DNA of 64,000 bases from a virus (lineage: Duplodnaviria; Caudoviricetes): the IMG/VR virus record IMGVR_UViG_3300021400_000103; one strand, 5' to 3'. The notes under the pieces were generated by a model. The model was not told where the DNA came from. It saw only the letters and a list, made by a program, of their open reading frames with translations, and ran no database searches. Position numbers and translations under genes: made by a program. Positions within the stretch are counted from its first letter, which is position 1, and the number at the start of each line of letters is the position of its first letter. Shown one piece after another: positions 1 to 17,402 of the stretch.

Positions 1-123
1 CCAACCGTTCTCCGCATAGAACTCACTTCCATCCATCTCATCTGCAATCTCTCTTGCTTCTTCAAATGAATTAGCTTCGACTTCTGCGGAATAATAACTA
101 CGATAAATAACAGTATACTTCAT
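1..123 (-). CDS. DpnD/PcfM-like small protein (partial, runs off window)
   Basis: GGAGG RBS; MKYTVIYRSYYSAEVEANSFEEA pattern resembles the VEA.S.EEA family. Confidence 0.5.
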   Translation of the reverse strand, partial: MKYTVIYRSYYSAEVEANSFEEAREIADEMDGSEFYAENGW

Positions 124-135
124 AATTCGTACCTC

Positions 136-576
136 CTACCACTTATGCAACTTCATATTTGCCTTGTCTTCTAACTTAAACATCACTATAAACTTTGTAA
201 CCACATCCTCTGCCATCTTCTTAAATTCCGTATATGTCATGGATTTATTGAAGTCTAAAAAATCGCCACCACCAATATAATCATACGGATACAGTTCATC
301 TTCCGGCACATCATATTTATCTTTGTATCTACCTGTTTCCATAGCATCTTTTGCTGAATAACCATATCCCGTATCAACACCACCAACGTAAACATCCCAT
401 GTAAGTGTAATATCATTTGGATCATTGTTATATTGTCTTAGTAAAAGATCACAACATATCTCACCAACTCTTATAAAACCAATACATTCATCGGCATGGA
501 GCCAAGCAGTTTCCGTTTCCATATTGCAATAGTTAATATAGTCCTTTTCCGTGAACTCATCCCAGTTAAATTCCAT
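136..576 (-). CDS. hypothetical phage protein
   Basis: ORF with GGAGGT RBS in leftward array. Confidence 0.8.
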   Translation of the reverse strand: MEFNWDEFTEKDYINYCNMETETAWLHADECIGFIRVGEICCDLLLRQYNNDPNDITLTWDVYVGGVDTGYGYSAKDAMETGRYKDKYDVPEDELYPYDYIGGGDFLDFNKSMTYTEFKKMAEDVVTKFIVMFKLEDKANMKLHKW

Positions 577-630
577 ATACATACCTCCGTCAAATTTGGC
601 TTTTATTTATAATAATTTTCCTTCTTATGT

Positions 631-888
631 TTATGCTTCCTTATAAACATATGTGAAGTTTGCTCCGTCATAATATGGATCATTTGTCATATTCCGTATG
701 TTAACCACATTCCCCAAACCATTTCTGTTAGTTCCGATCATTTCCTCAACATCATCTGCGGTTATGTCATGGTTTGCATATACATCAAAGCTATACCTTC
801 CGGATGCCGACCAGGTATCGCCGCACTCACATTCAACTTCAAACAGCATCATACCATTAACTCCGCATTCTGTGTCATTATTAAACAT
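631..888 (-). CDS. hypothetical phage protein
   Basis: ORF; GGGAGG RBS before ATG at 888. Confidence 0.75.
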   Translation of the reverse strand: MFNNDTECGVNGMMLFEVECECGDTWSASGRYSFDVYANHDITADDVEEMIGTNRNGLGNVVNIRNMTNDPYYDGANFTYVYKEA

Positions 889-926
889 ATGCCTTGCCTC
901 CCTTATCAAATTCAGATTTCATCATC

Positions 927-1184
927 TTATGTTTCAAAATATTCGTCAATAATTTCATAATCGCTTGGATCGTAAGCGCCACCAACCATAATATCGTTTA
1001 CTGTATGATCCCATATCGAGTATGTTTCTCCTTCATTTTCATCAAGCAATTCTTCCCATTTCCTTTTTAACTCTTTTGGTGTTCCACACCAAACAGACAA
1101 CTTAATATCTTCGTCCCCTGTATAATAGTCTAGGTTCATATTAAACCGTTCGTTATAAATTCTAATTTCGTATCTCCCCTTCAT
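927..1184 (-). CDS. hypothetical phage protein
   Basis: ORF with RBS. Confidence 0.75.
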   Translation of the reverse strand: MKGRYEIRIYNERFNMNLDYYTGDEDIKLSVWCGTPKELKRKWEELLDENEGETYSIWDHTVNDIMVGGAYDPSDYEIIDEYFET

Positions 1185-1211
1185 AGATACCTCCATAAAA
1201 TTTAACTTTTA

Positions 1212-1412
1212 TTACGCTACAATTTTAATATCTTTTATCCAACTGAATGGTATTACATAACCATCACAAGTAGTGGATAATCCATATAAAAATCCGTTAT
1301 CAAGAACTTCGTTTACTTTAAATCTGCGTTCAGCATTTGGAACTTTAGGAATGGGTGTTATCTCCACTGTATCTCCCGGTTTTACAAGTGCGATAATTGT
1401 TTCTTTAATCAT
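1212..1412 (-). CDS. hypothetical phage protein
   Basis: ORF with RBS. Confidence 0.7.
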   Translation of the reverse strand: MIKETIIALVKPGDTVEITPIPKVPNAERRFKVNEVLDNGFLYGLSTTCDGYVIPFSWIKDIKIVA

Positions 1413-1416
1413 AATG

Positions 1417-1578
1417 TTATCTCCCTTCAAATCTGTATTTATTTATTTTTATCGTTTCAAATCTATACATATTCTCGTCACACTTCGGGCAGTAAAACGG
1501 ATACTCTCTGCGGAGTCCTTTACTCGTTTCTCTTTTGACATATGTATTACATCTGATACATTTTCTATGTGTTCTCAT
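1417..1578 (-). CDS. small Zn-ribbon protein (not in ORF track)
   Basis: MRTHRKCIRC...YPFYCPKCDENMY, two CxxC motifs, GGAGG RBS. Confidence 0.7.
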   Translation of the reverse strand: MRTHRKCIRCNTYVKRETSKGLRREYPFYCPKCDENMYRFETIKINKYRFEGR

Positions 1579-1610
1579 TTGTTTTACCTCCTTATGAAAC
1601 TCTGCTTTTA

Positions 1611-1961
1611 TTAGAAATCAACTTCACTATCCATTTCTTTAGCAAACTGTCTAAATGCTTTCCAGATAAACCGCTCCCTTTCTGTTTCATCTATCTCTAT
1701 ATCATAATTTGCATAGTCATCCTTTTCTCCGTTATTACATTGAAACCATAATGAAATGCTCTGCTTTACCACATCTACATCAAGGTAGAAGTTGTACCAA
1801 ACATCATTATTAGAATCAACTGCCATATCAGCACAGCCGTTTAATTCTCTTATTTCGTCTGCAATTCCTATTAACTCATCCGTAGGCAATAAATCGAAAC
1901 TCAATATTGAATCTTCGACCCATTCAAAATTCTGAATTGTGATATATCCAATGTTATTCAT
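1611..1961 (-). CDS. hypothetical phage protein
   Basis: ORF with GGAGGTG RBS. Confidence 0.75.
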   Translation of the reverse strand: MNNIGYITIQNFEWVEDSILSFDLLPTDELIGIADEIRELNGCADMAVDSNNDVWYNFYLDVDVVKQSISLWFQCNNGEKDDYANYDIEIDETERERFIWKAFRQFAKEMDSEVDF

Positions 1962-1993
1962 ATAAATTGTCACCTCCATTTAGAATAAACAAG

Positions 1994-2308
1994 TTATTTT
2001 ATTGTTTCTTCCCATTCCTCATTGGATATATTCGCTTTATAATAATCGAACGCTTCTATATAATTATCACAAGGAATTTCGCTCCACATCTCATGTTCTG
2101 CCATATAATTGATCACTCCGCCAATAGGCTTTTCATTTTCAATCATAATGTCTATACTAAAGCAACTCGAATCGTACTCGTTTCCGTCTTTTTCTCTACC
2201 ATAATCTTCAAGAAATTTAGGAATGCTCCTATCTCCTCTTAAACAAACTCTTCCAATTCCTTGTACAGGACAGAAACATTCATCAAAGAATTTTTTGTCT
2301 ATAACCAT
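1994..2308 (-). CDS. hypothetical phage protein
   Basis: ORF with RBS. Confidence 0.75.
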   Translation of the reverse strand: MVIDKKFFDECFCPVQGIGRVCLRGDRSIPKFLEDYGREKDGNEYDSSCFSIDIMIENEKPIGGVINYMAEHEMWSEIPCDNYIEAFDYYKANISNEEWEETIK

Positions 2309-2335
2309 ATAATCATCTCCCTTAAAAACATTATT

Positions 2336-2842
2336 TTATACTGAAAAATTATTCACTGTATTACAAAGTTCATAAAAATCAGTAGTTTTATTACAGATAT
2401 TCGACATTTTTTTAATTAAAGCTTCTGATACTTTTTCTTCTAATTCTCTTTTAATATCTACCCAGTCTTTTAAAAGTACATCAATGTCTTTTTTATGCTC
2501 ATCTATCCTTCTAATGTCCCGCCATGAATCATCATTTCTGGATGAATAATACATGGAAAATAAAATATTCCCTTTCTCTTCTTTCGGACAATATCTATCG
2601 TCAGAAAGATTGAATCGAAAGCTAATTCCATTATAAAAATCAAGTTTATGTTCTACTAAAACTCTCATGGGAGCATCAATAGAATTTGCCATCTCATATA
2701 AATAATTTACAATTTTATCAATAGATATCTGTCTGTTATTTTCTAAATCTGTCTTATTTTCTTCAACTACCTTGTCAAGCATTTCTTTCATAGTTTTTCT
2801 CATTTCGCCCAATGCTTTAATTTTTTCTAACGACATAATCAT
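2336..2842 (-). CDS. hypothetical phage protein
   Basis: ORF; its TAA stop is part of the TAAAA arm of the boundary site. Confidence 0.8.
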   Translation of the reverse strand: MIMSLEKIKALGEMRKTMKEMLDKVVEENKTDLENNRQISIDKIVNYLYEMANSIDAPMRVLVEHKLDFYNGISFRFNLSDDRYCPKEEKGNILFSMYYSSRNDDSWRDIRRIDEHKKDIDVLLKDWVDIKRELEEKVSEALIKKMSNICNKTTDFYELCNTVNNFSV

Positions 2843-2900
2843 TTACCTCCTTTGAAAATCTTATTTTATTTGTCATTGTTACTTTCTACGTTTACACCAA

Positions 2901-3128
2901 CTATGTGATTATATTTGTTAAATCAAATCCAACTGGTTCAATCATTTCTTCATCTACTGTTTCCATTGGATTGATAAATAAGCTTGTGTTAATAGTTTCA
3001 ATCAACCACCGTGTCATCTCATTAGTAATTGGATTTAATCTGTTTTCTTTGACAATATGAAGATATTTCTCTTCGCCAGGGCTACACCATTTTGGACTGT
3101 ATCTTACTATCATACCTACCTTTATCAT
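2901..3128 (-). CDS. hypothetical phage protein
   Basis: ORF with RBS. Confidence 0.75.
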   Translation of the reverse strand: MIKVGMIVRYSPKWCSPGEEKYLHIVKENRLNPITNEMTRWLIETINTSLFINPMETVDEEMIEPVGFDLTNIIT

Positions 3129-3159
3129 TTTAACGTCTCCTTTCTATAAAATCCGTGTT

Positions 3160-3453
3160 TTATTTCTCCATTAATATATCCTCAACAATCTCAGCCAGTT
3201 TCTTTGGTGTTTCAGCCTTCAGAATTTTCTCCCACTGGCGAGGATATAATGCTTGCCATGTACTGCAATATGAATGAGCCGGACTATTGTTTTCTGCTAA
3301 AATTGTTGTCCATTTCCATCCCTGTCCAAAATCAAAATATGTCTCTCCTACTGAATATAATGTTCCATCTTTACTGTATGTCGTCATCAACTGAGCTGCT
3401 ACAATAAGCCTTTTAGTTTCTTCACTTTCATAATTCAACAATGTAGGGTTCAT
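3160..3453 (-). CDS. hypothetical phage protein
   Basis: ORF with RBS; YFDFGQGWKWTTI motif. Confidence 0.75.
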   Translation of the reverse strand: MNPTLLNYESEETKRLIVAAQLMTTYSKDGTLYSVGETYFDFGQGWKWTTILAENNSPAHSYCSTWQALYPRQWEKILKAETPKKLAEIVEDILMEK

Positions 3454-3484
3454 ATACACGCCTCCCTTGAAAACCTTGTTTTAT

Positions 3485-3931
3485 TTATTTCCAATACGTT
3501 TTATAAAAACCTTGGTCTGGATCTCCATAACTTCTCATTTCACATTCTTCATATGTTCCCTTATATGATATTGAAACTAATTTTAATGGATATTTTAATT
3601 TATCAATCTGCTCATCATAGCAACCAATATCAATCCCTTTACATCGGTTCTCTTGTAAAATTGTATTACCTCTTTTAATAATATCATCCATTGTACTTGG
3701 GTATTCGTCTCCATCATATATCATTCCATCACAACCATTCCAATAAGCAAGTATTCCATATAGGTCTGCTTCATTTTTCTCACCATAAAAAACATATCCA
3801 TAATCATAATAAGTATCTTTAATAAATCCACCACCAAATTCTTTTGGGATAAGAATTTTATACCTATCTCCCATTGTTAAATTTTTTCTTTTTGTTGTTT
3901 TATCTGCCCTTATCCAACTAAAACTACCCAT
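3485..3931 (-). CDS. hypothetical phage protein
   Basis: ORF with RBS. Confidence 0.8.
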   Translation of the reverse strand: MGSFSWIRADKTTKRKNLTMGDRYKILIPKEFGGGFIKDTYYDYGYVFYGEKNEADLYGILAYWNGCDGMIYDGDEYPSTMDDIIKRGNTILQENRCKGIDIGCYDEQIDKLKYPLKLVSISYKGTYEECEMRSYGDPDQGFYKTYWK

Positions 3932-3953
3932 ATTATTTACCTCCCTTCAAATC

Positions 3954-4187
3954 TTACCCAAGAATTACACAATTTTCTTTGGTGTGTGTACCATCGTGTT
4001 CTAATTCTAATAAATATTCAAAATCTTCTTCATCTGCATCTGTGAACTGGTAGAACAGTGTATGATAACCATTTCCTTCATCGTCACATGAGATTAGTAC
4101 ATGTTTATCTCCGTTACCTTTTTGAATCTGTTCCTTACAATACATTTCCAACTGTTTTACTGTGATTCCTAAATTAGCCATATTCAT
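3954..4187 (-). CDS. hypothetical phage protein
   Basis: ORF; DDEGNGYH motif. Confidence 0.75.
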   Translation of the reverse strand: MNMANLGITVKQLEMYCKEQIQKGNGDKHVLISCDDEGNGYHTLFYQFTDADEEDFEYLLELEHDGTHTKENCVILG

Positions 4188-4286
4188 ACCTCCCTTAAAA
4201 CCTGGTTCTATTCAACCTCATAAGCTTCGCCTTCAACCACAGTGGTTGTTAATTTCAAGTGTGATCGTTTTCATGTTGACGCCTCC

Positions 4287-4529
4287 CTACATAACTTCTA
4301 CAATTCGTACTGCGCTATAACTGCACCTTTGATCATCTGCTCCAAAATGTTTATCAACATATTCCCCAGCTTCCTTTGCAGTATCAAAAAGTTTTGTCTT
4401 TTCATTTACATTGTCTTCAAATATAAATATTTTATGTTCTCCTTTTAGAGCTAAGTACAACCACTCTTCATATTCTGTATCTGTTTTACTGTTATACATA
4501 TAATAACTGACTTGTATTGCATACTTCAT
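4287..4529 (-). CDS. hypothetical phage protein
   Basis: ORF with RBS. Confidence 0.75.
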   Translation of the reverse strand: MKYAIQVSYYMYNSKTDTEYEEWLYLALKGEHKIFIFEDNVNEKTKLFDTAKEAGEYVDKHFGADDQRCSYSAVRIVEVM

Positions 4530-4552
4530 ATTTATACCTCCATTTCAAGCTA

Positions 4553-4804
4553 CTAAGAAAAACTACAATCAGGAAGTTTAGAAACAGTGTATGCCTCAAA
4601 CCTTCCGTTATTTGACAGCGAAAGCACATAAGGAGTTCCTCCTTCCCAGGCTTCGTTGTCAATGTCTTCCAGAGTGATGCCAAAGTCATCAGCCAGCTGT
4701 TCTCTCGCGCTTAAGATCGCTGCTTCCTCATTTTCGTAGATGGTTGCCTGTCCGGCGTAAACCGCACCGTCTACATCCTGTGAAATATTGGTTAATACAT
4801 ACAT
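4553..4804 (-). CDS. hypothetical phage protein
   Basis: ORF with RBS. Confidence 0.7.
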   Translation of the reverse strand: MYVLTNISQDVDGAVYAGQATIYENEEAAILSAREQLADDFGITLEDIDNEAWEGGTPYVLSLSNNGRFEAYTVSKLPDCSFS

Positions 4805-4833
4805 ATCATCACTTCCTTTCAAATCTTGGTTAT

Positions 4834-5079
4834 TTAATAAAGGCCTCTGTCTTTTGCAAATCCACTATATGCAAGTACCTCGCCATTAGATATAACCCAA
4901 TGTCTATTTTTCGCTGTCTTCACAACCGCATACCATCCAAAGAATGCATCCCATCCTGCACTTAGAATTTTAATAGTGTTAACAGTTTCCTCTATTAAAT
5001 CACTAATTTCGTTTGCAATCTGTTCAGCGGTCATTTTTGTTTTAAGTAAATAGTTTTCATCAAGACCTTTGATTATCAT
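4834..5079 (-). CDS. hypothetical phage protein
   Basis: ORF flanked by two boundary sites with identical CCAAGA spacer. Confidence 0.75.
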   Translation of the reverse strand: MIIKGLDENYLLKTKMTAEQIANEISDLIEETVNTIKILSAGWDAFFGWYAVVKTAKNRHWVISNGEVLAYSGFAKDRGLY

Positions 5080-5117
5080 GTTATCACCTCTCTTAAAATC
5101 TTGGTTTTATTTAACTC

Positions 5118-5768
5118 TTAAATATGACAATCAACCAATGTCACAAGAACGTCGTTGTCAAACTTTTCAATTGCTTTTTTAAATTCTTCTTCCCAATTAT
5201 CTTGTTCTTTTTCGTTTGTCACTATTGCCCACCATCCCATTTTTCCTTTTTCATACCATTTTCCATTTGGTGTTATAAATGCAAATGGTATACCAGTTTT
5301 ATCCCAATCAATCTCACTTACATAATCTGAGTTTGTTTCTCTTCCTTCTTTGGTAACCAAACCTCCTGTCCATCTGCCACCAATTGTATACCAATCCCAT
5401 TTGGAGTGCGGATTGTATGTAGACAATAGATTTCCATCTTCATCAATCATGTCTTCCCCATACCACATCTTCTGTTCTTCATAACACTCCTCGTCCGTCC
5501 AATTAAGTCTCTTAGGAAACTCATTTTTAATATACTCAAGATGTTTTTTATTATCACACTTCTCTTCGTATGCAATGGGATCCGCAAGGTACTCGGCATA
5601 CAAACCATTCTTATAATCCTCAATTTCCTTGCGTGTTTTGGCTATTGCCTGTTCTTTTGTAAGTTCGATGTACGGCGGGTATGTGATAGACTCATCATAC
5701 GGTGCAAGTAACTGTTCAACATCTCTTTTATCTTTCTTTGTAAAAACATAAACTGTAAAATGGCTCAT
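5118..5768 (-). CDS. conserved phage protein (NPxSKWDWYxIGGRW family)
   Basis: Characteristic motif; ends VDCHI. Confidence 0.8.
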   Translation of the reverse strand: MSHFTVYVFTKKDKRDVEQLLAPYDESITYPPYIELTKEQAIAKTRKEIEDYKNGLYAEYLADPIAYEEKCDNKKHLEYIKNEFPKRLNWTDEECYEEQKMWYGEDMIDEDGNLLSTYNPHSKWDWYTIGGRWTGGLVTKEGRETNSDYVSEIDWDKTGIPFAFITPNGKWYEKGKMGWWAIVTNEKEQDNWEEEFKKAIEKFDNDVLVTLVDCHI

Positions 5769-5795
5769 ATTGTTACCTCCCTTAAAAAATTGGTT

Positions 5796-6041
5796 TTATA
5801 CGATACACGCTCTTTGTATCATTACTTCGCAGTGATTTTTGAAATCCATATAATTATCTTGTATTCCAGTTGCCCACTCCTTAAATACATTTCCGTTACA
5901 CAAAAGCTGTATATATACTCCTTTACGACCGTCATACATTGTGTATTCTCTAACCCGTATATCTCTACCAGTTCTTTTACTTTCTTGTTTACAACGCCTT
6001 TCTGCATACATTATTGATTTTGTCCAATCTGAATAATTCAT
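5796..6041 (-). CDS. hypothetical phage protein
   Basis: ORF with RBS. Confidence 0.75.
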   Translation of the reverse strand: MNYSDWTKSIMYAERRCKQESKRTGRDIRVREYTMYDGRKGVYIQLLCNGNVFKEWATGIQDNYMDFKNHCEVMIQRACIV

Positions 6042-6072
6042 TTTAGTACCTCCTTTAAAATATTCGTTTTAT

Positions 6073-6327
6073 TTACATCGGATATGCAGCATAAACTGCA
6101 TTTTCATTTCCATTTCTACCTTTAAATACATCATAATAGTAATGATCTGCTACTGTATCACTTTCCCTAATCCCTTGGATGTCATCAGGATATAGCCACC
6201 AATTCCAATCATTCTTCATATACTGCATAATGTAGTTTATCAATGCCTTTTTCGGTGGCTGTGTATATTCAGCCACTTTTTGTACTCCAGGTTTTCCTTC
6301 GACTAATTTATATATAACAGTCACCAT
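6073..6327 (-). CDS. hypothetical phage protein
   Basis: ORF with RBS. Confidence 0.75.
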   Translation of the reverse strand: MVTVIYKLVEGKPGVQKVAEYTQPPKKALINYIMQYMKNDWNWWLYPDDIQGIRESDTVADHYYYDVFKGRNGNENAVYAAYPM

Positions 6328-6354
6328 ATCATTTACCTCCATCAAATGTTGTTT

Positions 6355-6984
6355 TTATTTGTTCTGGAATTCTCTTCTGCGTTCCACCTCGGCATCATTT
6401 TCCGGGTCAGAATAATATTTGTACGCAAGTAACATTGGATAATCACTGTTCTTAGCTCTATCCCACATTAAGTACTCCGCCCAACAAGGCTCACCATTTG
6501 ACTCTTCACACCAGCTTGGCCATTCTTTCATCAACGAATAAGGAGAATTATAATGACATCTATCATTTATGACATACTCCTTATCATAGCCACAAATTCT
6601 TACCAATATATCCTCAATCGAAACTCGCTTGGCTAATCGGCAGAGCCAGTTCATGAATTCACGAAAAGTTTCACTGAATTCTCTGTCTCGGAAAGCACCG
6701 TTGACTACCAATATGTAGTTATCTTGTACCCTAAGCCAACCTCTTTTCTGATTATGACAACCATATGAATCGGTTAAATTATTTGTCATTTCTCCGTATT
6801 CATCGCAAGAACGACTTGAATTCGTTCCATTTTTCTGGATAATATATACATTCATATCGCCTTCAGATCCGGTTACCAACGGAAGATGATTTAATACCGT
6901 TTCTAAGATATATCTTTTTTCTGCCTGGGTTCTTCCCATCGGTTGAACTTCAATGGTTCCGTTTATATATGTCCACCAACTCAT
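6355..6984 (-). CDS. hypothetical phage protein
   Basis: 209 aa ORF with RBS. Confidence 0.8.
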   Translation of the reverse strand: MSWWTYINGTIEVQPMGRTQAEKRYILETVLNHLPLVTGSEGDMNVYIIQKNGTNSSRSCDEYGEMTNNLTDSYGCHNQKRGWLRVQDNYILVVNGAFRDREFSETFREFMNWLCRLAKRVSIEDILVRICGYDKEYVINDRCHYNSPYSLMKEWPSWCEESNGEPCWAEYLMWDRAKNSDYPMLLAYKYYSDPENDAEVERRREFQNK

Positions 6985-7079
6985 TGTTAATACCTCCTAT
7001 GAAATGTGTGTTTGATCTCTCCTATCACTACGCAATCAATCCAAGTTCTTCCAGAATGCAATCCCATTTCATTTCATTT

Positions 7080-7454
7080 TTACAATTCATCTCCGTCACT
7101 CCATGTATCAGGATTATTTAATCTCTGTCCCCAAATATTCCACCATCTACCGCAGTTAGGGCATTCACAACCGCCGAGATACTCATTGTAGAGTTCAATC
7201 GTTTCTCCGCAGTCACAAGTCCCGGAGTTATTTTCTCTATATTCCTGTTTCCATTCCACCACTTTGTTATACCGAACAAACTTTTCTGGATGTGCCAAAG
7301 CGTATTCATAATTCTTTTTAGCAGCGTCGTTAATGTCATCACTCACCTTTCCATTTTTGTCGCATGGGAAACTAAATCCGTTATTACGTCCGTCATCAAA
7401 AGTGAGTTCATACCATACTTTTTCTACTAATTCGCCTTGCTTAAAATCTTTCAT
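7080..7454 (-). CDS. Zn-ribbon-containing hypothetical protein
   Basis: CDCG...CPNCG motifs. Confidence 0.75.
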   Translation of the reverse strand: MKDFKQGELVEKVWYELTFDDGRNNGFSFPCDKNGKVSDDINDAAKKNYEYALAHPEKFVRYNKVVEWKQEYRENNSGTCDCGETIELYNEYLGGCECPNCGRWWNIWGQRLNNPDTWSDGDEL

Positions 7455-7744
7455 GATACGTAATCTCCTTTATCTTTGCTTGCAACACCGCCGCAATATA
7501 GACCACCGGATTTCCATGCTCCCTTCATCATAATCAGGAAACAGGACATTAAATCCTTAAAATTGTCGTCCTCTATGTAGTAGTCGTCGTCATCTATGTT
7601 GGCAATATCCATATCTCCGTACTCAATATCGCCGTCGGCAACACCAGACATTAACCATCCTTCAAACACTTCTTCATCATTGATCTGTCTTGCGATGTAT
7701 TCCATCGCAAGCACCATCTTCTTCCGTTCTTCCATCTTTGTCAT
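7451..7744 (-). CDS. hypothetical phage protein
   Basis: ORF overlapping the next gene by ATGA. Confidence 0.75.
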   Translation of the reverse strand: MTKMEERKKMVLAMEYIARQINDEEVFEGWLMSGVADGDIEYGDMDIANIDDDDYYIEDDNFKDLMSCFLIMMKGAWKSGGLYCGGVASKDKGDYVS

Positions 7745-7767
7745 AATGTTCTCCCCTCTTTTACACT

Positions 7768-8100
7768 TTACTCACCGAACGCATCTCTCCAAAACTGCTT
7801 CTTTTCGTCTGCATCAAGTGTTTCATAGTAGTATGCTACAACCGCATTCTTAATTGCCTTTACTGTCAACACTCCAACATAATTCAATGTCTGTAACTCG
7901 TTCCATCTATCAAGAATCTGACCGATCTTGTCAATCTTGTTCCGCCTGAGTCCGTTATAACCTCTCGCTTCCAGCCCAAGATTTCCAATATCCAGATTCT
8001 CAATTCTCTGTGATTTCCTAAACCGGAAAATGATGTTATTATCTACAGTTACATCTGCGTTCTGTGCGATTACCTCAAAATCTCTCTGAAAATTTGTCAT
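7768..8100 (-). CDS. RNA polymerase alpha-subunit C-terminal-domain-like protein
   Basis: IGNLGLEARGYNGLRRNKIDKIGQIL...VGVLTVKAI resembles alpha-CTD [21 protein letters not shown]...LGKKSLEEI. Confidence 0.7.
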   Translation of the reverse strand: MTNFQRDFEVIAQNADVTVDNNIIFRFRKSQRIENLDIGNLGLEARGYNGLRRNKIDKIGQILDRWNELQTLNYVGVLTVKAIKNAVVAYYYETLDADEKKQFWRDAFGE

Positions 8101-8113
8101 GGCGTTATTCCTC

Positions 8114-8299
8114 CTAATATTCGATTTCTGTTGCACTACAATCCGTGTGATAGAGTGTTATTTCCGCTTCAGGAAACCTGGCCTTTAATACTCGTGCCTT
8201 ATCCAATGCTACGTGTTCCCATGTATCATCAAGTTCAACTGTTGCCCAATGTTTACCACCGACGGCGATGTTGATCCAGTAATTATTTTTGATCATCAT
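8114..8299 (-). CDS. hypothetical phage protein
   Basis: ORF with RBS. Confidence 0.65.
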   Translation of the reverse strand: MMIKNNYWINIAVGGKHWATVELDDTWEHVALDKARVLKARFPEAEITLYHTDCSATEIEY

Positions 8300-8303
8300 A
8301 GGT

Positions 8304-8564
8304 TTAGTCCTCCATTCTCTTAATAATGTTCCCAAGTGCTTCAAGCTGTTCGCCTGTCAACGTGATTCCCTTACCGCATTTTTCAACACCCTCTTCGTTT
8401 GTTACCCAGCTTCGAACATCATACTTCGGATCGTTATCGCCCCACTTCACATACCGCAATTCCGTTGTCCATCCGTTCTTACCTTCACTAATGACACCGC
8501 ATTTCTCAATCACTTCGTACTTGATTCCATCGTCCTTTGCCTTACCATTCTTCTTAATTGCCAT
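8304..8564 (-). CDS. ydbC: YdbC/PC4-family ssDNA-binding protein
   Basis: GWTTELRYVKWGDNDPKYDVRSW...GKGITL signature. Confidence 0.85.
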   Translation of the reverse strand: MAIKKNGKAKDDGIKYEVIEKCGVISEGKNGWTTELRYVKWGDNDPKYDVRSWVTNEEGVEKCGKGITLTGEQLEALGNIIKRMED

Positions 8565-8565
8565 A

Positions 8566-8748
8566 TTAGTTATCCTCCTTTTTGTTAATAATACTTACCG
8601 TATAATTACTATCATAACAATTATCCGGCCCCTTCAGTTGCCCTCCATAAATGCCCTCACTTACCATGTCGATTGCTTCATCTTTGCTGTCTGCTTCGAC
8701 TACATACGTTCTTGCGTAAGACTCTGTGTAGGTAACTTCATACTTCAT
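8566..8748 (-). CDS. DpnD/PcfM-like protein
   Basis: KYEVTYTESYARTYVVEADSKDEA. Confidence 0.65.
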   Translation of the reverse strand: MKYEVTYTESYARTYVVEADSKDEAIDMVSEGIYGGQLKGPDNCYDSNYTVSIINKKEDN

Positions 8749-8753
8749 ACGCA

Positions 8754-8918
8754 TCACTCCTCCTCTTCTATACTCAACCAATAACTTCCGTTTGTAGTTC
8801 CGTCATCATATGTCCAACCCCATGACTCACACAGTTTCATCGCCTGGGCTTCTGTCATGTGCGGTTCAACTATAATCTTCTTTTTAGTTTGTTTGTGAAT
8901 CCCTATCACGTTCCACAT
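8754..8918 (-). CDS. hypothetical small protein (not in ORF track)
   Basis: 54 aa ORF coupled by TAATG to the upstream gene. Confidence 0.6.
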   Translation of the reverse strand: MWNVIGIHKQTKKKIIVEPHMTEAQAMKLCESWGWTYDDGTTNGSYWLSIEEEE

Positions 8919-9169
8919 TATGCAACTCCCCTTTCCGCTTTAATATCACATATGTACTGCATAGCATCCTCCAGCTCCGTGAAGTAATGTCCCTGCGCCC
9001 ATGATTTCCCATCTCCCTTATATCCCCATGCTGCTACCCACGGCTGATATTTACTGTTGCGGTAAATAAGTGTGTAGTCGATCTCCGGATACTCTGCGAC
9101 CACCACATAGTTTTCGCTTGTGTTGTCTACGCCGACTAACTCTTTAAGGTTGTAGAATCTCTTCGTCAT
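8918..9169 (-). CDS. hypothetical phage protein
   Basis: SWAQGHYF motif; GGAGGTG RBS. Confidence 0.75.
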   Translation of the reverse strand: MTKRFYNLKELVGVDNTSENYVVVAEYPEIDYTLIYRNSKYQPWVAAWGYKGDGKSWAQGHYFTELEDAMQYICDIKAERGVA

Positions 9170-9304
9170 ATCAATACACCTCCCCAGTTTGTTCGTTATA
9201 CACATAGCTAACATCAGGATTATTTAATAAGTCCGGCAGTATTGCGATTGTGTACCGGATTTTACGGCCGTTTTTGAATACGGCTATGATAGTTGTTGTT
9301 TCCA

Positions 9305-9505
9305 TTATGTTTCCTCCATCCTTAACTTAGGGAACGACATTACTGATCTGTATGCCTGGTCTAATGTGTTGCACTGTCTAAATCCATAACCATTCGGTGT
9401 AAAAAACTCATAGCCATAGCCAACCATACTGTTCAGCCATTTCCGTTTTCCATTGAAGAAAATACCTCGCAGTTCCGCAGCTCTCTGTACTCGTTTGATT
9501 GTCAT
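9305..9505 (-). CDS. hypothetical phage protein
   Basis: ORF with RBS. Confidence 0.65.
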   Translation of the reverse strand: MTIKRVQRAAELRGIFFNGKRKWLNSMVGYGYEFFTPNGYGFRQCNTLDQAYRSVMSFPKLRMEET

Positions 9506-9680
9506 ATCTTTACCTCCGATCAATCTCCTATCCAACCCTCGTTTTCATCGTACTCAAGATACTCTTCATCCAACACCATAAACGGTGTTTCGTACTTGCT
9601 GCCGTCCCAGTTTCCGTATGCCTTGTGATTCTTCGTTGTGTGCTTCCAATTACGTGTATAGTGCATTTTGTTTTCCTCCA

Positions 9681-9887
9681 TTAGAAATGACAATCATATA
9701 ATGTTTCGCCGTCCCACTCGGACTCGTCATCATCTTCACCACACCATTCGCAAACATGCTTACGACCAAGAGTAGCACACTCTTCTTCGTCTATTTCTTC
9801 GCCTACATAAACCCCACCACAACTTCCGCTGCTTTTGAGATAGTCGATACATCGACTACAAAGGATAATCATATCTTCCCTATCCAT
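9681..9887 (-). CDS. Cys-rich small protein
   Basis: Two CxxC motifs; RBS. Confidence 0.7.
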   Translation of the reverse strand: MDREDMIILCSRCIDYLKSSGSCGGVYVGEEIDEEECATLGRKHVCEWCGEDDDESEWDGETLYDCHF

Positions 9888-9912
9888 CGGCTCACCTCCA
9901 ATCGTTTAGCCA

Positions 9913-10203
9913 CTAAACACCCATCAGCCACCGCAATGTTTTAAAGGTTAACGGTTCATCATCCAACATCCGGCAAGCATTTTCCACTTCGCTTATGAAG
10001 TCACTGGAATACTTTGCCATTGTCATACGATCCCATGTACCATCTTCAAGTTTCCGTTCCGCAGAATACTTGCCTTGGATTGCCCCACTCCTGTATACGA
10101 TGCGTACATTTCCGTTTTTAGCTGTGCGAACAATGTCGTCGCCACGTTTTGTTTTCTCTCCGTTATAACCGCCAGACCATTCGAGATATTTCATAGTTAT
10201 CAC
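9913..10203 (-). CDS. hypothetical phage protein
   Basis: ORF with RBS. Confidence 0.7.
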   Translation of the reverse strand: MITMKYLEWSGGYNGEKTKRGDDIVRTAKNGNVRIVYRSGAIQGKYSAERKLEDGTWDRMTMAKYSSDFISEVENACRMLDDEPLTFKTLRWLMGV

Positions 10204-10213
10204 CCTCCCCTAA

Positions 10214-10468
10214 TTACAGTACAGTTAAAGGTGTATCTTCGCTTACCAATTCCATTTCGTCATAGTTACATCCGTACCACCAATATCCGGCGTTTGTGTT
10301 TGCCAACACTTTTACTGTCGGGATTACTCCAAGACTACGGATGGTGCCGACATATCCGTAACACGGCCCCTTGTCGTTGTTTTCAAACGTCCATTCTCGC
10401 TTGACAGGATCCCATATCCGTGGCGTCATTCGTACTCTCTGTCCGATTTTCGCTTCGTTTTCTCTCAT
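10214..10468 (-). CDS. hypothetical phage protein
   Basis: ORF with RBS. Confidence 0.7.
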   Translation of the reverse strand: MRENEAKIGQRVRMTPRIWDPVKREWTFENNDKGPCYGYVGTIRSLGVIPTVKVLANTNAGYWWYGCNYDEMELVSEDTPLTVL

Positions 10469-11022
10469 ACCGCCACCTCCGTAGCCTTCTTAATATCCGC
10501 AAGTAAATCTGCTTTTTCGATTGCGTAATACGTTCCGACATCCTGTTCATTTACGTAGTCCCACACATCATATGTTTCACTGAACAGGTTTACATCCGCC
10601 GTATACTGATCGTTTATATCAATACATTGTGTTACCGATTCCAAATAAAGGATTTCTTCAAACGCATTTTCCCTCTCCATTTTTACAACGAAGTCTGTAT
10701 CAAACACGATTCTTGCATCTCCGTACAGATGCACATTAACGATTGCGACAGGACAATTCTCTCTGTACCAAATTCTGATATCCTTATCTATGTTGGTATT
10801 GTAGTTATATGTATACATACCGTGCGTTTCCGTATTCTTCTTAAAGTCCTCTATAAACTTGTCCGTTGCTCCGATTTCGTATTTCTTAAGTTCCTCAAGG
10901 AACGGAATACAATCACCACAGATTACGTCTTCACGGATGTTTCCGTTATCGTCATAAATCCATTGTCTACCTGACGTTCTTGTTTCCTTTACCGCTTCAA
11001 TAACTCTGTCAAGTCTGCTCAT
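10465..11022 (-). CDS. hypothetical phage protein
   Basis: ORF flanked by a 17-bp direct repeat. Confidence 0.8.
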   Translation of the reverse strand: MSRLDRVIEAVKETRTSGRQWIYDDNGNIREDVICGDCIPFLEELKKYEIGATDKFIEDFKKNTETHGMYTYNYNTNIDKDIRIWYRENCPVAIVNVHLYGDARIVFDTDFVVKMERENAFEEILYLESVTQCIDINDQYTADVNLFSETYDVWDYVNEQDVGTYYAIEKADLLADIKKATEVAV

Positions 11023-11034
11023 ACCGCCACCTCC

Positions 11035-11664
11035 TTATGCACTATAAAAACTACGGGCTTCATTATTCAGCTTCGCCACTATATTTGCCTTATTCAACGG
11101 TTCGTATTCTCTTGGCTTACATCCGTACACCTTTTCAGCAAACCTCGGGAGTCTGGAATACCGCTTAAATATCTGTGTTATTACCTCATATCCTTTTCGC
11201 TTATCGTTCCAATTTTCGTTGTAGCGATCTTCATACTCAACACCGGCATCTGTGATTTCCTTTATCTCAAAGTGGCACGTTCCATCGTGGTGGGAACAGG
11301 TGAGATACATATGTCCGTTTTCATCGTAGATACGAATGTAATCACAGTCTGTAATTGCCTTGCTAAACAGTTCCCAAAACTCACCAACTTCGCCTACTTT
11401 ATACACTCCGTCCCATCTTCCGACTTCACCGAAGAATCCGACTGTTTTGCCTTTGAAGTGTTCGTTAAGTCTTTCCTTTTCGCAATCCCAATCTACTTCG
11501 GCTTCATCATACCGCCACTTCCAACGCATGTCGTCGGTGATTTCTTCGTCCTCGTCTACCCAGCCACATTCCCTTGCCATTTCATCGAGTTCGGAATCGG
11601 GATAGTTGTTATCAAGGTCATAGTTGTCATAGATTACTCTTGCTTTAGGCGTTCTATTCGTCAT
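11035..11664 (-). CDS. hypothetical phage protein (HHDG motif)
   Basis: ORF with RBS. Confidence 0.8.
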   Translation of the reverse strand: MTNRTPKARVIYDNYDLDNNYPDSELDEMARECGWVDEDEEITDDMRWKWRYDEAEVDWDCEKERLNEHFKGKTVGFFGEVGRWDGVYKVGEVGEFWELFSKAITDCDYIRIYDENGHMYLTCSHHDGTCHFEIKEITDAGVEYEDRYNENWNDKRKGYEVITQIFKRYSRLPRFAEKVYGCKPREYEPLNKANIVAKLNNEARSFYSA

Positions 11665-11679
11665 AATGATTTACCTCCC

Positions 11680-11967
11680 TTAGTGGTCTGTTCCGTACCC
11701 TACATCATAGGGTTCCATTTGTTCGTGCGTTGCCGGACACACCGCTTCAATCACCATTTTGAGCGGTTCCTTTGGATCATGCCATGTACCCCAGAATCTG
11801 CACTCAACTACTTTACTTCCGTCAAGTAACAATATTCGCTTAATTGTTTCGCCGTGACAGTCCGACATATCCATTGTGTTAAAGATTTGCCTTGCTGTTT
11901 GGATAACAGGTTCCATCAATTTTCCGTCACTATCTTCGTAGATAACAAGATATTTATTCTGTTCCAT
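11680..11967 (-). CDS. hypothetical phage protein
   Basis: ORF with RBS. Confidence 0.75.
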   Translation of the reverse strand: MEQNKYLVIYEDSDGKLMEPVIQTARQIFNTMDMSDCHGETIKRILLLDGSKVVECRFWGTWHDPKEPLKMVIEAVCPATHEQMEPYDVGYGTDH

Positions 11968-12167
11968 GGAATTACCTCCTAACCTTCTGTGTACGATCTA
12001 ATCTCTGTTGCTACGTCCTTAACCATCTGTTCGAAATTCTTTTCGAAGTAGAAACCATACTCCATAAGAAGTTCGTAGTCTTCCTTGTCCATTTTTACCT
12101 CGAACGTTTTTGTCATAGTATCCATAACATTGTCCTCCTCTAACGCATGAATTAAATCACGTTTCCT

Positions 12168-12416
12168 TTAGATGAAATCCCTTATACTCATTCCTGGAGC
12201 ATCCCATGGATTGCCAGGCCCATAATCACCAGCTGTTGCACTCGGACAATAATGTTCTTCATCGTAGCAATCCGGTTTGCCTTCTTCATATCTACCGCAA
12301 ACACCTAAACCAGGATCATCTTCAGTTCCCTCCATTTCATACCCCATGCAGTAGTCAATACCTGACCAACTCGTAAATGCTCTGTGCTTGCAATTACTGC
12401 ATTTCCGTTCTGCCAT
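12168..12416 (-). CDS. Cys-rich hypothetical protein
   Basis: PSATAGDYGPGNPWDAPGMSIRDFI C-terminus. Confidence 0.75.
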   Translation of the reverse strand: MAERKCSNCKHRAFTSWSGIDYCMGYEMEGTEDDPGLGVCGRYEEGKPDCYDEEHYCPSATAGDYGPGNPWDAPGMSIRDFI

Positions 12417-12428
12417 AAGCTATCCCTC

Positions 12429-12665
12429 CTAACCAGTAAAGTAGTTGTATTTTCCATATCCATCTTTCGTTAGTAAAAACTTTGGTGTCTTTTTATACCT
12501 CAAGTGTTTCCGTACTTCTCTTCCTGTCCTCACATTCGTGGTTATCTTGTAAAATCCTTCGCTGCCAAAGTAACTGTAATAGGTTATTACATTTCCCTTT
12601 TCGGCATATAACTCGTATATTCCGTATTTTTCGCAATAAATTAAAACTGCATCCGTATCAAACAT
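12429..12665 (-). CDS. hypothetical phage protein
   Basis: ORF with RBS. Confidence 0.7.
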   Translation of the reverse strand: MFDTDAVLIYCEKYGIYELYAEKGNVITYYSYFGSEGFYKITTNVRTGREVRKHLRYKKTPKFLLTKDGYGKYNYFTG

Positions 12666-12895
12666 TTCGTTTACCTCCTTATCTGAATTCGATCTCCTTC
12701 TTCCAATGCTGGATCCTCGGCCATATACATCTTTACGGCTTCAGTTGCGTTCTCCGTGTTGTATGTCTTTTCATCAATGAGTGTTCCATATTCACTCACC
12801 ACAATAATCGTCATTCCATTTTCCTCCTTTGTGTTATTGGTTAATGGCTACATCCATACCCACAAGCCGTTTCGCTTATGGGCATGGTGTGGTCA

Positions 12896-13693
12896 TTATG
12901 CTACGTTGAATGTGTACACATGGTCGGACAGATAGTCCGTCTCATTCAACACATTTTCGTTTACATCCTGAATCAGATTTGTGATTGTGGATTCATCTGT
13001 TTCACTTGCATCAAGCACAAGCATTTCGTGAATACTGGACGGAATCACGTAGTATCCATTCGGATACATTTCTGCCAGCTTTTTCTTTGCCTTAATAATA
13101 CCAATCGCTCCATTGATGTTATTCGGCGTACTAACAAACTTAAGTGGTGTGTATCCAATATCCATTCCGGGCATAAGTAATCCAAGTTTTTCTTCGAGAG
13201 ACATGATTTCGCACTCCGTATTTTTGATTGCTCTATCAATCACAGTTCGCTTGGTTACTCCCCAATTCTCCACCATACTCTCGGTGATTGTGATTGAACC
13301 TGCCTGTCCACCAATCACAACTTCAATGTACGGTACAATGATAAGGTCTGAGAATCCATATCCCTTTGCAGATCGAGTTACGGTAAAATGAGTGTTTCGC
13401 TTTTTGTTCATCAGCTTGCACTTAATCTGCCCCTTAATTGCTTCGTAATCGCTCAGTGTGCTTGCATTAAAACCAACATTACTCTGTTTCTTTACCTCTT
13501 CCCTTACCATATCAATTACCTCCTCTACACTTGTTTCGGTTTCATAATATTCATCAATATACATGGTTAATCCAATTCCGTTATCATTTTGTACAACAAC
13601 ACCAGTTTTTATGATGCCGTTATTTTTTGTGACTTCCTTTACCTCTCCGCCTACTACGTTTGCGATTGCCTGTGCATACTCCATCTTTGTCAT
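12896..13693 (-). CDS. DUF5688-like protein
   Basis: KNNG near N-terminus; YYVIPSSIHE and LSDHVY motifs. Confidence 0.75.
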   Translation of the reverse strand: MTKMEYAQAIANVVGGEVKEVTKNNGIIKTGVVVQNDNGIGLTMYIDEYYETETSVEEVIDMVREEVKKQSNVGFNASTLSDYEAIKGQIKCKLMNKKRNTHFTVTRSAKGYGFSDLIIVPYIEVVIGGQAGSITITESMVENWGVTKRTVIDRAIKNTECEIMSLEEKLGLLMPGMDIGYTPLKFVSTPNNINGAIGIIKAKKKLAEMYPNGYYVIPSSIHEMLVLDASETDESTITNLIQDVNENVLNETDYLSDHVYTFNVA

Positions 13694-13712
13694 AATTTCT
13701 CCTTTCGCTTGT

Positions 13713-13925
13713 TTAGTTGCTAAACCTCTTCGTTAGTTTCAGATGCTTTCCGTATGTGAACGGTGTTTTCCATGTGTCGTACTGCCTTTGGGTTATCTGT
13801 CCGTCTTTACACAGATAGTCAACCCAACCAGCCCATACTTCTTGAGCTGTCCAATAGTCAACTTGCCTTTCCCACAAGTCGATAAACTGGTTTCTGAATT
13901 GCCTTACGGCATCTTTGTAGGTCAT
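13713..13925 (-). CDS. hypothetical phage protein
   Basis: DYLCKDGQIT motif; RBS. Confidence 0.7.
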   Translation of the reverse strand: MTYKDAVRQFRNQFIDLWERQVDYWTAQEVWAGWVDYLCKDGQITQRQYDTWKTPFTYGKHLKLTKRFSN

Positions 13926-13938
13926 GTGGTCACCTCCC

Positions 13939-14373
13939 TTACTGAATCTCACACAGTTCGTCTATACAGTCACCGAACATCCGCATTACATTACGGTATT
14001 CCTTCTGTACTGCCTTAAAAGTGCGTTCCGTTTTCTGATAGGATTCACGATCACAAATCTCGTAGCCAAATTCCCTTGCGAAGTCCCATACATCTCCGTA
14101 TGGTTCGTATTTCTCTATACAAGCAAGCACATCATACGGACGAGGCCGCTTGTTGTTGAGATAGTTATGCAGACTGTCGCTAAACTGAAACGACCATGTT
14201 TTTCCGTTGCGGTCAATCCGTACACGGTAAAGCCATCCGTTTGTCATGGTGGATCGTTTCCATTCGGAAAATTTCCTGCGGTACACATATCCCTTTTCCA
14301 TTACATGGCTAATTGTCATCTTTGCGTTGTGCTTCTTCAGGAATTCCTTTACTTGAATATCATATTCATTCAT
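13939..14373 (-). CDS. hypothetical phage protein
   Basis: ORF with RBS. Confidence 0.75.
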   Translation of the reverse strand: MNEYDIQVKEFLKKHNAKMTISHVMEKGYVYRRKFSEWKRSTMTNGWLYRVRIDRNGKTWSFQFSDSLHNYLNNKRPRPYDVLACIEKYEPYGDVWDFAREFGYEICDRESYQKTERTFKAVQKEYRNVMRMFGDCIDELCEIQ

Positions 14374-14632
14374 CGCTATTCCTCCTCACTTTTGCGATTA
14401 CCTCGTTGTACATCGTTATCTCCACAGTTCCATCTTCCCTTACATTCATGCCGTATTCATCTAAATCTATGTCGTCCATACTGTCCCACAACCAACCTTC
14501 GTCAGTCATTATCTGCAGGACTTCCTCCATTTCTACCTTTTCCGTTTCGTAGTCGGTAACCCATGTGAAGTTGTTGGTTTCACCAAACATGTCATCACAA
14601 TATGAATCCTGTGCATAAATGCCGTACTTCAT
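14366..14632 (-). CDS. hypothetical acidic protein
   Basis: ORF with RBS. Confidence 0.7.
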   Translation of the reverse strand: MKYGIYAQDSYCDDMFGETNNFTWVTDYETEKVEMEEVLQIMTDEGWLWDSMDDIDLDEYGMNVREDGTVEITMYNEVIAKVRRNSDE

Positions 14633-14737
14633 TTCGCTTACTCCTCCTCCATTGCCTTGTAGTCGTTATACTCCTGGATTGCTGCGTAAATATCGCTTGT
14701 GTAGATGATTTCTCCCATTTCCTCTCGCTCCTTTCGC

Positions 14738-14998
14738 TTATAATGCTTCCATTCTCCTGATTATGTTTGCATGTTTAGTGACTAAACTGTCCGGTGCATC
14801 CATCTCTTCAAGCATTTCCTTGAAGTAGACGATCAAGTCTTTGCGAAGGTTTTCGTCCCACAGGTCTGAGACAATTTCGCTTGTCAATGCTTCGTAATAA
14901 TCACTTCCGTAACAATCTATTGCTTCGTAGGTATCTGCGAAATAACTGTCTGCAATTTCCCTTGCGAGTTCTTCGATCACTCCAACTCTATCCGGCAT
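14738..14998 (-). CDS. hypothetical phage protein
   Basis: ORF with RBS. Confidence 0.7.
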   Translation of the reverse strand: MPDRVGVIEELAREIADSYFADTYEAIDCYGSDYYEALTSEIVSDLWDENLRKDLIVYFKEMLEEMDAPDSLVTKHANIIRRMEAL

Positions 14999-15149
14999 TA
15001 CGCTACCTCCTTTGCATACTGGCGGAAGTATGCATCACATTCCGCCTTAGTTCCCTTTGCCTTGACAAGTTGCGTTGCCTTGTCAACCACATAATACGTT
15101 CCCTTATAGAACTCCATGCGGAGTCCACAGTATGATTTCACAAACATGC

Positions 15150-15338
15150 TCACGCTACTCCTTCATTTAACAGATTTAAGAAGTCAATATTTGCCTTTGC
15201 TTCTGCAATCGCCTGTGCCCTGGTATCCATACAGCACCGGTGTAATGCAAACCGCTTTCCGGTTTCCCTTTCTACATAGTCGGCTTGCCAACTATCGTAG
15301 GCGTTAAATACTTCGATTCCCTTGTAGTTGTACTTCAT
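15150..15338 (-). CDS. hypothetical phage protein
   Basis: ORF with RBS. Confidence 0.65.
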   Translation of the reverse strand: MKYNYKGIEVFNAYDSWQADYVERETGKRFALHRCCMDTRAQAIAEAKANIDFLNLLNEGVA

Positions 15339-17385: not shown

Positions 17386-17402
17386 ACACAGTAGGCTTGC
17401 GC

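Follow-up and report, generated by a model that had tools for sequence, protein, structure and literature searches.

Why should a short palindrome, each copy of which has a centre of its own, stand at almost every junction between small phage genes that are not related to one another? This question is raised by a stretch of viral DNA of 64,000 nucleotides (Duplodnaviria; Caudoviricetes; IMG/VR record IMGVR_UViG_3300021400_000103), hereafter called the window, which is part of a 150,841-bp metagenome scaffold. Positions 136-6984 of the - strand are occupied by an array of 19-20 small unrelated genes, which encode 41-216 aa and each have their own GGAGG ribosome site, and nearly all of the junctions in this array carry an element consisting of two short inverted arms around six variable bases. 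Is such an element read in the RNA, is it a docking site for a protein, or is it a place at which genes are exchanged? Comparison with related phages leads us to consider it likely that the sites are ordered crossover joints for gene swapping, whatever the mechanism may be. This view is based on the excess and the position of the sites, the conserved order of their centres, the unrelated genes on either side of them, a 15-nt island of identity around each centre, and cassettes that end in the sites.

Anatomy and position of the junction site

The window contains 23 copies of the strict pattern TNAAA-N6-TTTNA, versus 6.8 +/- 2.9 expected from 100 dinucleotide-preserving shuffles (maximum 18). 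Thirteen of the 23 fall within 590-7015, each immediately 5′ of a ribosome site, and none of the 10 outside this region (0/10) precedes a ribosome site. A further five junctions have degenerate copies, so that the total in 590-7015 is about 18, the number of gene-junction sites that a first-pass annotation of the sequence had counted; an excess over the background, which it had proposed as a check, and its statement that the copies precede ribosome sites are likewise borne out. The junction preceding the gene 4287-4529 has no copy of the site. A 22-codon ORF at 4208-4276 (-) with its own GGGAGG ribosome site is found between that gene and the gene 3954-4181, at a junction without the palindrome. 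The array has sharp bounds: genes past 7015 and past 136 are without the site. GC content changes from 0.31-0.36 to 0.42-0.48 beyond about 8 kb, in agreement with the earlier remark that the motif ends after 7015 and that GC then rises.

Every array copy lies on the coding (-) strand, where it separates a stop codon from the GGAGG ribosome site. The coding-strand consensus is A-TAAAA-N6-TTT-N-A, which is followed by an extended Shine-Dalgarno sequence, a gap of about 7 nt and ATG. In statistics pooled over the window and three relatives, G001-G003 (81-82 junctions), the distance from TTT to GGAG/GAGG is 3-5 nt at 65 of 81 junctions. The TAA of the arm doubles as the stop codon of the preceding gene at 27 of 82, including the cases at 2336, 3160, 5796 and 6355 to which the first-pass annotation had drawn attention, and the left arm is retained also where the stop codon sits 3-83 nt upstream. 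How palindromic is the site? TAAAA forms the left arm at 50 of the 82 junctions, as had been described. The right arm is TTTTA in only 29, with TTTGA in 21 and TTTCA in 12, and the second position of the left arm, mostly A, does not co-vary with its mirror position, which is T, G or C; the description as a palindrome needs this correction.

The first junction of the array is at 7000-7015 (TCAAA-CACACA-TTTCA) and the last site at 590-605 (centre GCCAAA). Besides the joints taken up below, the sites between them are those at 5783-5798 (centre CCAATT), 3147-3162 (CACGGA), 2853-2868 (TAAGAT) and 906-921 (TCTGAA, with GCTGAA at the corresponding place of G001), together with degenerate ones at 4196-4211 (TAGAA-CCAGG-TTTTA), 3947-3962 (left arm lost, right arm TTTGA retained) and 1427-1442 (ATAAA-TACAGA-TTTGA, within a two-gene block common to the window and G001). 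The resemblance of neighbouring centres noticed at first holds in part: the window's adjacent centres are more similar than in shuffled orders (P=0.004), as are those of G001 (P=0.02), which does not hold for the other arrays. The CCAAGA joint occurs twice in the window, at 5094-5109 and as a degenerate copy at 4819-4834, and the TAACTT joint two to three times in G002. In each case the duplicates flank single extra genes, in the window the gene 4834-5079. These duplicated joints, together with the similar neighbouring centres in the window, suggest that new slots arise through joint duplication.

What kind of genes are separated by these sites? None of the 20 array proteins matches a Pfam family above the curated cut-off, and their sole PHROG match is phrog_10079, of unknown function (gene 5118-5768). 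There is no paralogy among them, which rules out tandem duplication as the origin of the repeated linkers. All genes from position 1 to about 18000 of the window are on the - strand, and within 1-19000 sigma-70-like sites are not enriched (58 observed vs 59.9 expected), nor are terminators. The cassettes had been described as promoterless and as shuffled by site-specific recombination within an integron-like array. The one-directional run of ORFan genes, the lack of sigma-70 enrichment and the exchange of single genes or pairs at the sites, described below, favour the first part of this description; membership of the integrons is not favoured.

Centres, their order and their neighbours

Does the six-base centre belong to the gene or to the place? 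Eleven arrays were compared, namely those of the window, three IMG/VR relatives (G001-G003) and seven metagenome contigs. The relatives were located through the terminase (the TerL proteins of G001-G003 have 82-90% amino-acid identity to that of the window), and the seven metagenome arrays were retrieved by the CAAGGT joint alone, their other joints being unselected. G001, G002 and G003 have two arrays each of the same element, always on the gene strand. The centres of array A follow the order GTAAGA, ACAACA, CGAATA, CCAAGA, CAAGGT, TAATGT, TAACTT and GCAGAG, and array B has a separate order, TGAGTC, TCAGAC, TAGAAC, TGAAAC, TAAACT and GTACAA. When arrays are compared, the longest series of centres that they have in the same order comprises 6-9, versus a maximum of 3-4 in 5000 composition-matched draws, and the unselected joints of the seven metagenome arrays follow the identical order.

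The genes on either side of a given centre are of many kinds. The CAAGGT joint (3468-3483 in the window) is followed by nine distinct gene families in 11 arrays and preceded by 10; the TAATGT joint (2323-2338) is followed by eight in nine arrays; the CGAATA joint (6056-6071) has seven downstream and seven upstream families in seven arrays; and the CCAAGA (5094-5109) and TAACTT joints each have seven downstream families in seven. The upstream gene families per centre are equally diverse. The GCAGAG joint (1595-1610) is present in five arrays. Of the 37 same-slot protein pairs, 32 give a Smith-Waterman z below 2.5, and the lengths differ up to two-fold; these length differences and the lack of similarity rule out the rapid divergence of homologous genes between kept linkers. 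The core genes of the window and G001 have 63-84% DNA identity, and their arrays have only two of the window's 19 proteins in common. One gene family is found in different slots, after TAATGT in the window and G003 and after CAAGGT in the contig L295.

How far does the conservation around a centre extend? Between same-centre joints with unrelated flanks, identity is 0.85-1.0 at positions -1, 0, +1, +12 and +13, all of which are outside the ten positions fixed by the search, and it drops to 0.26 at +14 and to about 0.3 farther out on both sides. The conserved island is 15 nt long, from -1 to +13 (A-TAAAA-N6-TTT), with flanks at chance level. Four-fold degenerate sites in the core genes have 29-65% identity between the window and G001-G003. 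The centres are not passively retained, because six identical neutral bases would be expected in only about 1% of pairs.

Outside these arrays, the relatives G004, G005 and G013 share other perfect palindromes with identical centres (for example TCCGTC, GTCTAT, TCTAAA and ATCCCA) at different coordinates, and the pattern of kept centres appears to extend to this second sub-clade. In an unrelated-looking 61-kb phage contig, L232 (IMGVR_UViG_3300028610_001469), about 10 junctions read GATAAAA-N6-TTTTAT and then CTTGGAGAAA, on the reverse strand at 400-5100 and 13600-14100; it is the same element with 6-bp arms and a different ribosome-site flavour. A broad motif scan across viral contigs gave mostly chance matches, and a protein-based metagenome scan with the gene 1994-2308 found no relative.

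Breakpoints of shared cassettes

If genes are exchanged at the joints, where exactly do the exchanged pieces begin and end? For three cassettes that the window has in common with a relative, the edges were located in hand-checked alignments, the core genes having 57-84% identity for comparison. The genes 1212-1578 (block 1206-1614) have 97% identity to G001. This block begins at the left edge of the GCAGAG joint, which is its upstream edge, and stops one base past the left arm of the next joint (1196-1211, centre GTTAAA), the centre of which differs. The gene 1994-2308 (block 1988-2339) has 96% identity to G003, and the block opens at the TAATGT joint and ends with the centre of the TAACTT joint (1986-2001), which has an aberrant right arm, GTTTA. 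The third cassette, the gene 6355-6984, has 77% identity to G003; its upstream centres differ, and the match crosses the ACAACA joint (6342-6357) up to TTT. In addition, G001 and G003 have in common a gene of 91% identity, after which both read TAAAA before going on to different centres, which places the break at the border of arm and centre.

The first-pass annotation had expected breakpoints inside the N6 spacer. Instead, the spacer is kept, and these alignments indicate that the exchange points are at or in the arms and that the six-base centre stays in place. Automated mapping of BLAST block ends against the sites gave only nine ends, which were blurred by the consensus sequence. As a separate observation, more than 10 insertions or replacements of single genes distinguish G006 from its close relative G010, and their ends are mostly without the palindrome.

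The element in SPbeta and a candidate recombinase

What could act on such a site? The window phage is by its proteins a distant relative of SPbeta, because it has a homologue of SPbeta YomM and a YonO-like ORF, and because 13 proteins of its relative G001 have SPbeta matches; no near match to the window was found in the GenBank phage collection. In SPbeta, TNAAA-N6-TTTNA sites number 54; they are mostly perfect TAAAA-N6-TTTTA palindromes, many at or just past stop codons, and they stand 8-25 nt from the ribosome site. Judged from this comparison, the fusion with the ribosome site is a trait of the window's clade and the element itself is no translation signal; the uncultured phages of this distant clade would have the same element, its right arm relaxed and the site fused to the ribosome site. 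That the arms are kept from SPbeta to the window phage implies recognition by a conserved protein.

A candidate for both binding and catalysis is the tyrosine recombinase encoded at 45202-46248 (+) (PF00589). It is a full-length homologue of YomM (34% identity over 349 aa, E 3e-62), and the catalytic residues R-K-HxxR-H-Y are all present. In a phyletic profile, the recombinase of G001 alone among the G001 proteins matched all motif-bearing genomes and SPbeta and gave no match in two motif-free relatives. These two do give weaker matches to the window's recombinase, and the phyletic link between recombinase and motif is to be taken as a lead only. As SPbeta counterparts of the window recombinase, MrpR/YopR and YopP were also considered and rejected, MrpR being without meaningful similarity and YopP having only a 43-residue N-terminal match.

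SPbeta itself integrates via a serine recombinase, and its record annotates SprA (yokA) as a site-specific recombinase. According to a review of SPbeta, integration is effected by SprA (PMC8270828). A literature search found no described role for a YomM-type recombinase and no paper describing the element, which the same review does not mention.

A perfect TAAAA-N6-TTTTA palindrome is also present at 44884-44899, 300 bp before the start of the recombinase gene, within the reading frame of an aminotransferase gene, where it encodes KHKRDILL. It is retained in G001 and G002 and not in G003. As it is conserved as coding sequence, it is probably coincidental.

A model of address-coded exchange

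How might the exchange proceed? Arms that all joints have in common (A-TAAAA ... TTT) would enclose a 6-bp centre particular to each joint, which would serve as an address. When two related phages are in one cell, exchange would take place between joints of equal centre: DNA on one side of a joint would be joined to the DNA of the other phage on the other side, and the gene order would remain unscrambled. Rarer exchange between unlike joints would shift a gene from its slot to a different one or produce a second copy of a joint. The YomM-family recombinase 45202-46248, as the candidate enzyme, would bind both inverted arms and cleave the DNA where the 6-bp centre meets them. Enzymes of the tyrosine-recombinase type need identical overlap regions, and it is this need that would supply the address.

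In this scheme we infer that the arms are bound by a protein, the recombinase, which would also catalyse the exchange. The arm-6 bp-arm geometry, the conservation of the arms, the presence of a YomM-type recombinase and the address-like behaviour of the centres speak in favour of a site-specific enzyme. Catalysis of the crossovers by the phage recombinase seems to us, from the sequences compared, a real possibility that falls somewhat short of probable. The complete proposal, that SPbeta-related phages carry a natural address-coded cassette exchange run by an orphan YomM-family recombinase and confined to joints of the same centre, is put forward tentatively.

Exchange with or without a dedicated enzyme

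Several observations weigh against this proposal. The syntenic recombinases of G001-G003, which have 73-83% identity to one another, are only 25-26% identical to that of the window, despite letter-identical joints. SPbeta YomM carries Lys in place of the second catalytic Arg in the alignment, and given this substitution it may be inactive. Among the relatives, neither the presence of the recombinase nor the strength of its match tracks site density. The conserved arms are only 5-6 nt, which is shorter than known recombinase arms, and the right arm is relaxed, being TTTGA or TTTCA in 33 of 82 junctions. Only four cassettes are common to the window and its relatives, which leaves single-base breakpoint statistics thin, and all of the mapped breakpoints fit crossovers in 15 nt of plain homology equally well. 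Genes are replaced elsewhere, too: the site-free block at 7-18 kb turns over its genes equally, with four of 33 proteins common with G001, and the block edges of the G006/G010 pair (L216/L217) are at ribosome sites or stop codons, without the palindrome. Gene replacement thus does not depend on the sites.

Can the joints, then, be ordered crossover points without a dedicated enzyme? In such a case the 15-nt cores and the similar ribosome-site consensus would be the sole homology shared by two arrays, and general or phage homologous recombination, single-strand annealing or template switching would be resolved there, while the main job of the palindrome would be something else, for example docking of a regulator. 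The mapped breakpoints, which are all inside or at the edge of identical sequence, would be expected on this account, and relatives without the palindrome have their block boundaries at the conserved ribosome site. The poor conservation of the recombinase where the joints are identical and the presence of an exonuclease gene (phrog_284) at 23840-25045 point in the same direction. However, 15 nt is generally under the usual minimum for efficient homologous exchange. Enzyme-free exchange also leaves unexplained why TAAAA-N6-TTTTA is exactly retained from the Bacillus phage SPbeta to the distant window phage and why seven to nine unrelated genes abut one core with the break always to the left of +14. 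A precedent is found in the promoter-early stem-loops (PeSLs) of T4-type phages (PMC2839356, PMC4122927). On balance we consider crossing over by homology alone possible and yet doubtful.

Operator or expression signal?

A different role without any recombination would be that of an operator or roadblock for a dimeric DNA-binding protein, resembling a stoperator, which silences the accessory genes or sets their timing. Here the shared centres would reflect a recently shared array backbone, in which genes have been replaced by illegitimate recombination and selection. The 5-N6-5 inverted geometry does fit a dimer, a site is present at almost all junctions of a one-directional block as in the case of the L5 stoperators, and the SPbeta palindromes, not being tied to the ribosome site, imply a role at the DNA level. 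In SPbeta, a protein with the recombinase fold, MrpR, represses at a repeated element (PMC10516654), but the MrpR operator has a different sequence. Moreover, an operator needs its arms and not its centre, yet the centres are letter-identical while neutral sites in the core genes are near saturation, and random breakpoints would scramble the order of the centres, which is kept in 11 arrays. We therefore regard an operator role as unlikely.

Still less probable, and in our opinion quite improbable, is a signal for expression at the RNA level. The site might fold into a small hairpin, enhance translation through its AU-rich sequence, act as a spacer for re-initiation after the stop codon, be cut by an RNase or serve as a promoter of a phage polymerase; the palindrome might then be a by-product of stop-codon context (TAAAA) and a U-rich leader (UUU). 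The fixed spacing to GGAG and the sharing of TAA with the stop codon, as counted above, are in keeping with such a signal. Unstructured linkers favour initiation, and four of six linkers fold no better than most shuffles (z +0.1 to +1.1). A YonO-like RNA polymerase is present in the phage. The sigma factor family PF04542, in contrast, sought as a promoter-recognising factor, was absent from the four relatives searched. A TAAAA/UUUUA hairpin is predicted in none of the six linkers (0/6), the arms do not co-vary, and there is no Rfam match. The left arm is kept even where the stop codon is up to 83 nt away, the SPbeta sites stand clear of the ribosome site, and ordered centres specific to each slot are not explained by an expression signal.

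The true integron, in which IntI captures circular cassettes via folded attC sites and to which the first-pass annotation had likened the array, shares with it one-directional cassettes without recognisable promoters that are separated by inverted repeats, and it can be practically dismissed on the grounds that the sites are 16 bp instead of 57-141-bp attC sites with R and L boxes and have no GTTRRRY core, that no integrase, attI or Pc is found at either end of the array, that the recombinase reaches 20.7 bits with the IntI model TIGR02249, for which the cut-off is 265 bits, and that the 5-bp AT stem is not predicted to fold (RNA parameters).

Genome context

What sort of phage carries the array? 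Its genome encodes a terminase, a portal, a tape-measure protein, two homing endonucleases and the exonuclease mentioned above. An 870-aa ORF at 20217-22829 (+) is colinear with SPbeta YonO (20% identity over 323 aa, E 4e-5); it belongs to phrog_8308, has no Pfam or NCBIfam match and is conserved across all relatives examined. YonO is a single-subunit RNA polymerase of SPbeta akin to multisubunit polymerases, and the ORF is probably a very divergent polymerase of the YonO type.

The site-free early block contains genes for a protein with a PC4-like ssDNA-binding domain at 8304-8564 (-) (PF02229, precomputed hit) and for a DUF5688 protein at 12896-13693 (-). Positions 1-124 of the window are repeated at L163:13389-13512 with 96.8% identity, about 1.9 kb onward in the same scaffold, as a small dispersed duplication downstream of the array. 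The two homing endonucleases are a GIY-YIG enzyme encoded at 29121-30107 (+), between terminase and portal, and a LAGLIDADG enzyme encoded at 38838-39710 (+), in the head region; G001 has no DNA matching 28782-32052, and therefore the endonuclease genes look like mobile insertions. The gene at 44072-45214 (+), in the late region, encodes a full-length class-V aminotransferase or cysteine-desulfurase-like protein (PF00266, E 1e-56), which is unusual cargo for a phage. It overlaps the downstream recombinase gene and is conserved in G001-G003.

Significance

How phages shuffle their genes has long been debated: conserved 'linker' sequences may lie at module boundaries, or random illegitimate recombination may be filtered by selection. 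To our knowledge, few concrete linkers have been found besides those of the T4-type phages. The joints considered here would be an explicit linker of 15-16 bp, which bears an address and is conserved from SPbeta to uncultured metagenome phages, and as SPbeta is tractable in Bacillus subtilis, the linker question becomes directly testable.

If address-coded exchange is true, co-infecting phages would trade single accessory genes slot by slot with their order kept, and viruses would have in this system their equivalent of integrons, operating on the principle of engineered exchange between heterospecific lox/FRT sites. The ORFan genes that are exchanged probably form an early host-takeover or anti-defence repertoire, and the joints would define the units in which this repertoire evolves. 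If an enzyme is involved, the arrays would represent a natural system of cassette exchange that is new, and orthogonal recombination sites could be drawn from it.

Comparison with known systems

Which of the known systems does the array resemble? Integrons also have one-directional arrays of promoterless single-gene cassettes with inverted-repeat sites between them. The variable attC of an integron travels with its cassette, whereas the variable centre of the array stays put while the genes change, and the only recombinase is 38 kb away.

The pdif sites that bound dif modules on Acinetobacter plasmids, on which XerC/XerD act, have 11-bp dif-like arms and a 6-bp spacer and alternate in orientation. 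As in the array, modules found in varied contexts lie between short arm-6 bp-arm sites, with no recombinase gene inside the module. The array differs in that the arms are conserved over 5-6 nt only, the site is self-mirrored and the centres would act as addresses.

The stoperators of cluster A mycobacteriophages, bound by gp71 in L5, are asymmetric 13-bp repressor sites without a variable centre, and we know of no case in which they serve as ordered exchange points. Both systems have many copies of a short site in the tight intergenic gaps of a one-directional block, often over stop codons. The array site, in contrast, is a palindrome with a variable centre.

Another repeated intergenic element of SPbeta-type phages is SPBRE, a 15-bp SPbeta operator bound by MrpR, the repressor with the tyrosine-recombinase fold, at ten promoters known from ChAP-seq (PMC10516654). 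A 10-mer core, AATATGTATA, derived here, is common to nine of these ten MrpR-bound promoters. There are about ten copies of SPBRE, all in promoters, and the core is unlike TAAAA-N6-TTTTA; in the window it has a single match, inside a gene at 1464, and is otherwise absent from the array.

The PeSLs of T4-type phages are composites of a sigma-70 promoter and a terminator hairpin (Arbiol et al., 2010, PMC2839356; Comeau et al., 2014, PMC4122927). Their copies are all alike, and homologous exchange between any two of them gives mini-circles (PMC2839356, PMC4122927). Like the array sites, they are short and conserved, separate small ORFan genes within the plastic parts of a large phage genome, and mark where insertions, deletions and replacements between relatives end. 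The array sites differ from PeSLs in being 15-16 bp without promoter or terminator and in having a separate centre for each copy in a fixed order.

Cassette exchange with heterospecific lox or FRT sites is an engineered system with 13-bp arms and a known enzyme, in which only partners with the same spacer react, and a cassette is accordingly swapped in register. The arms of the array are 5-6 bp, and its enzyme is a candidate only. By analogy, however, the two would share the same design: common arms, varied spacers and joints of the same centre, which in the phages stand in order across 11 arrays.

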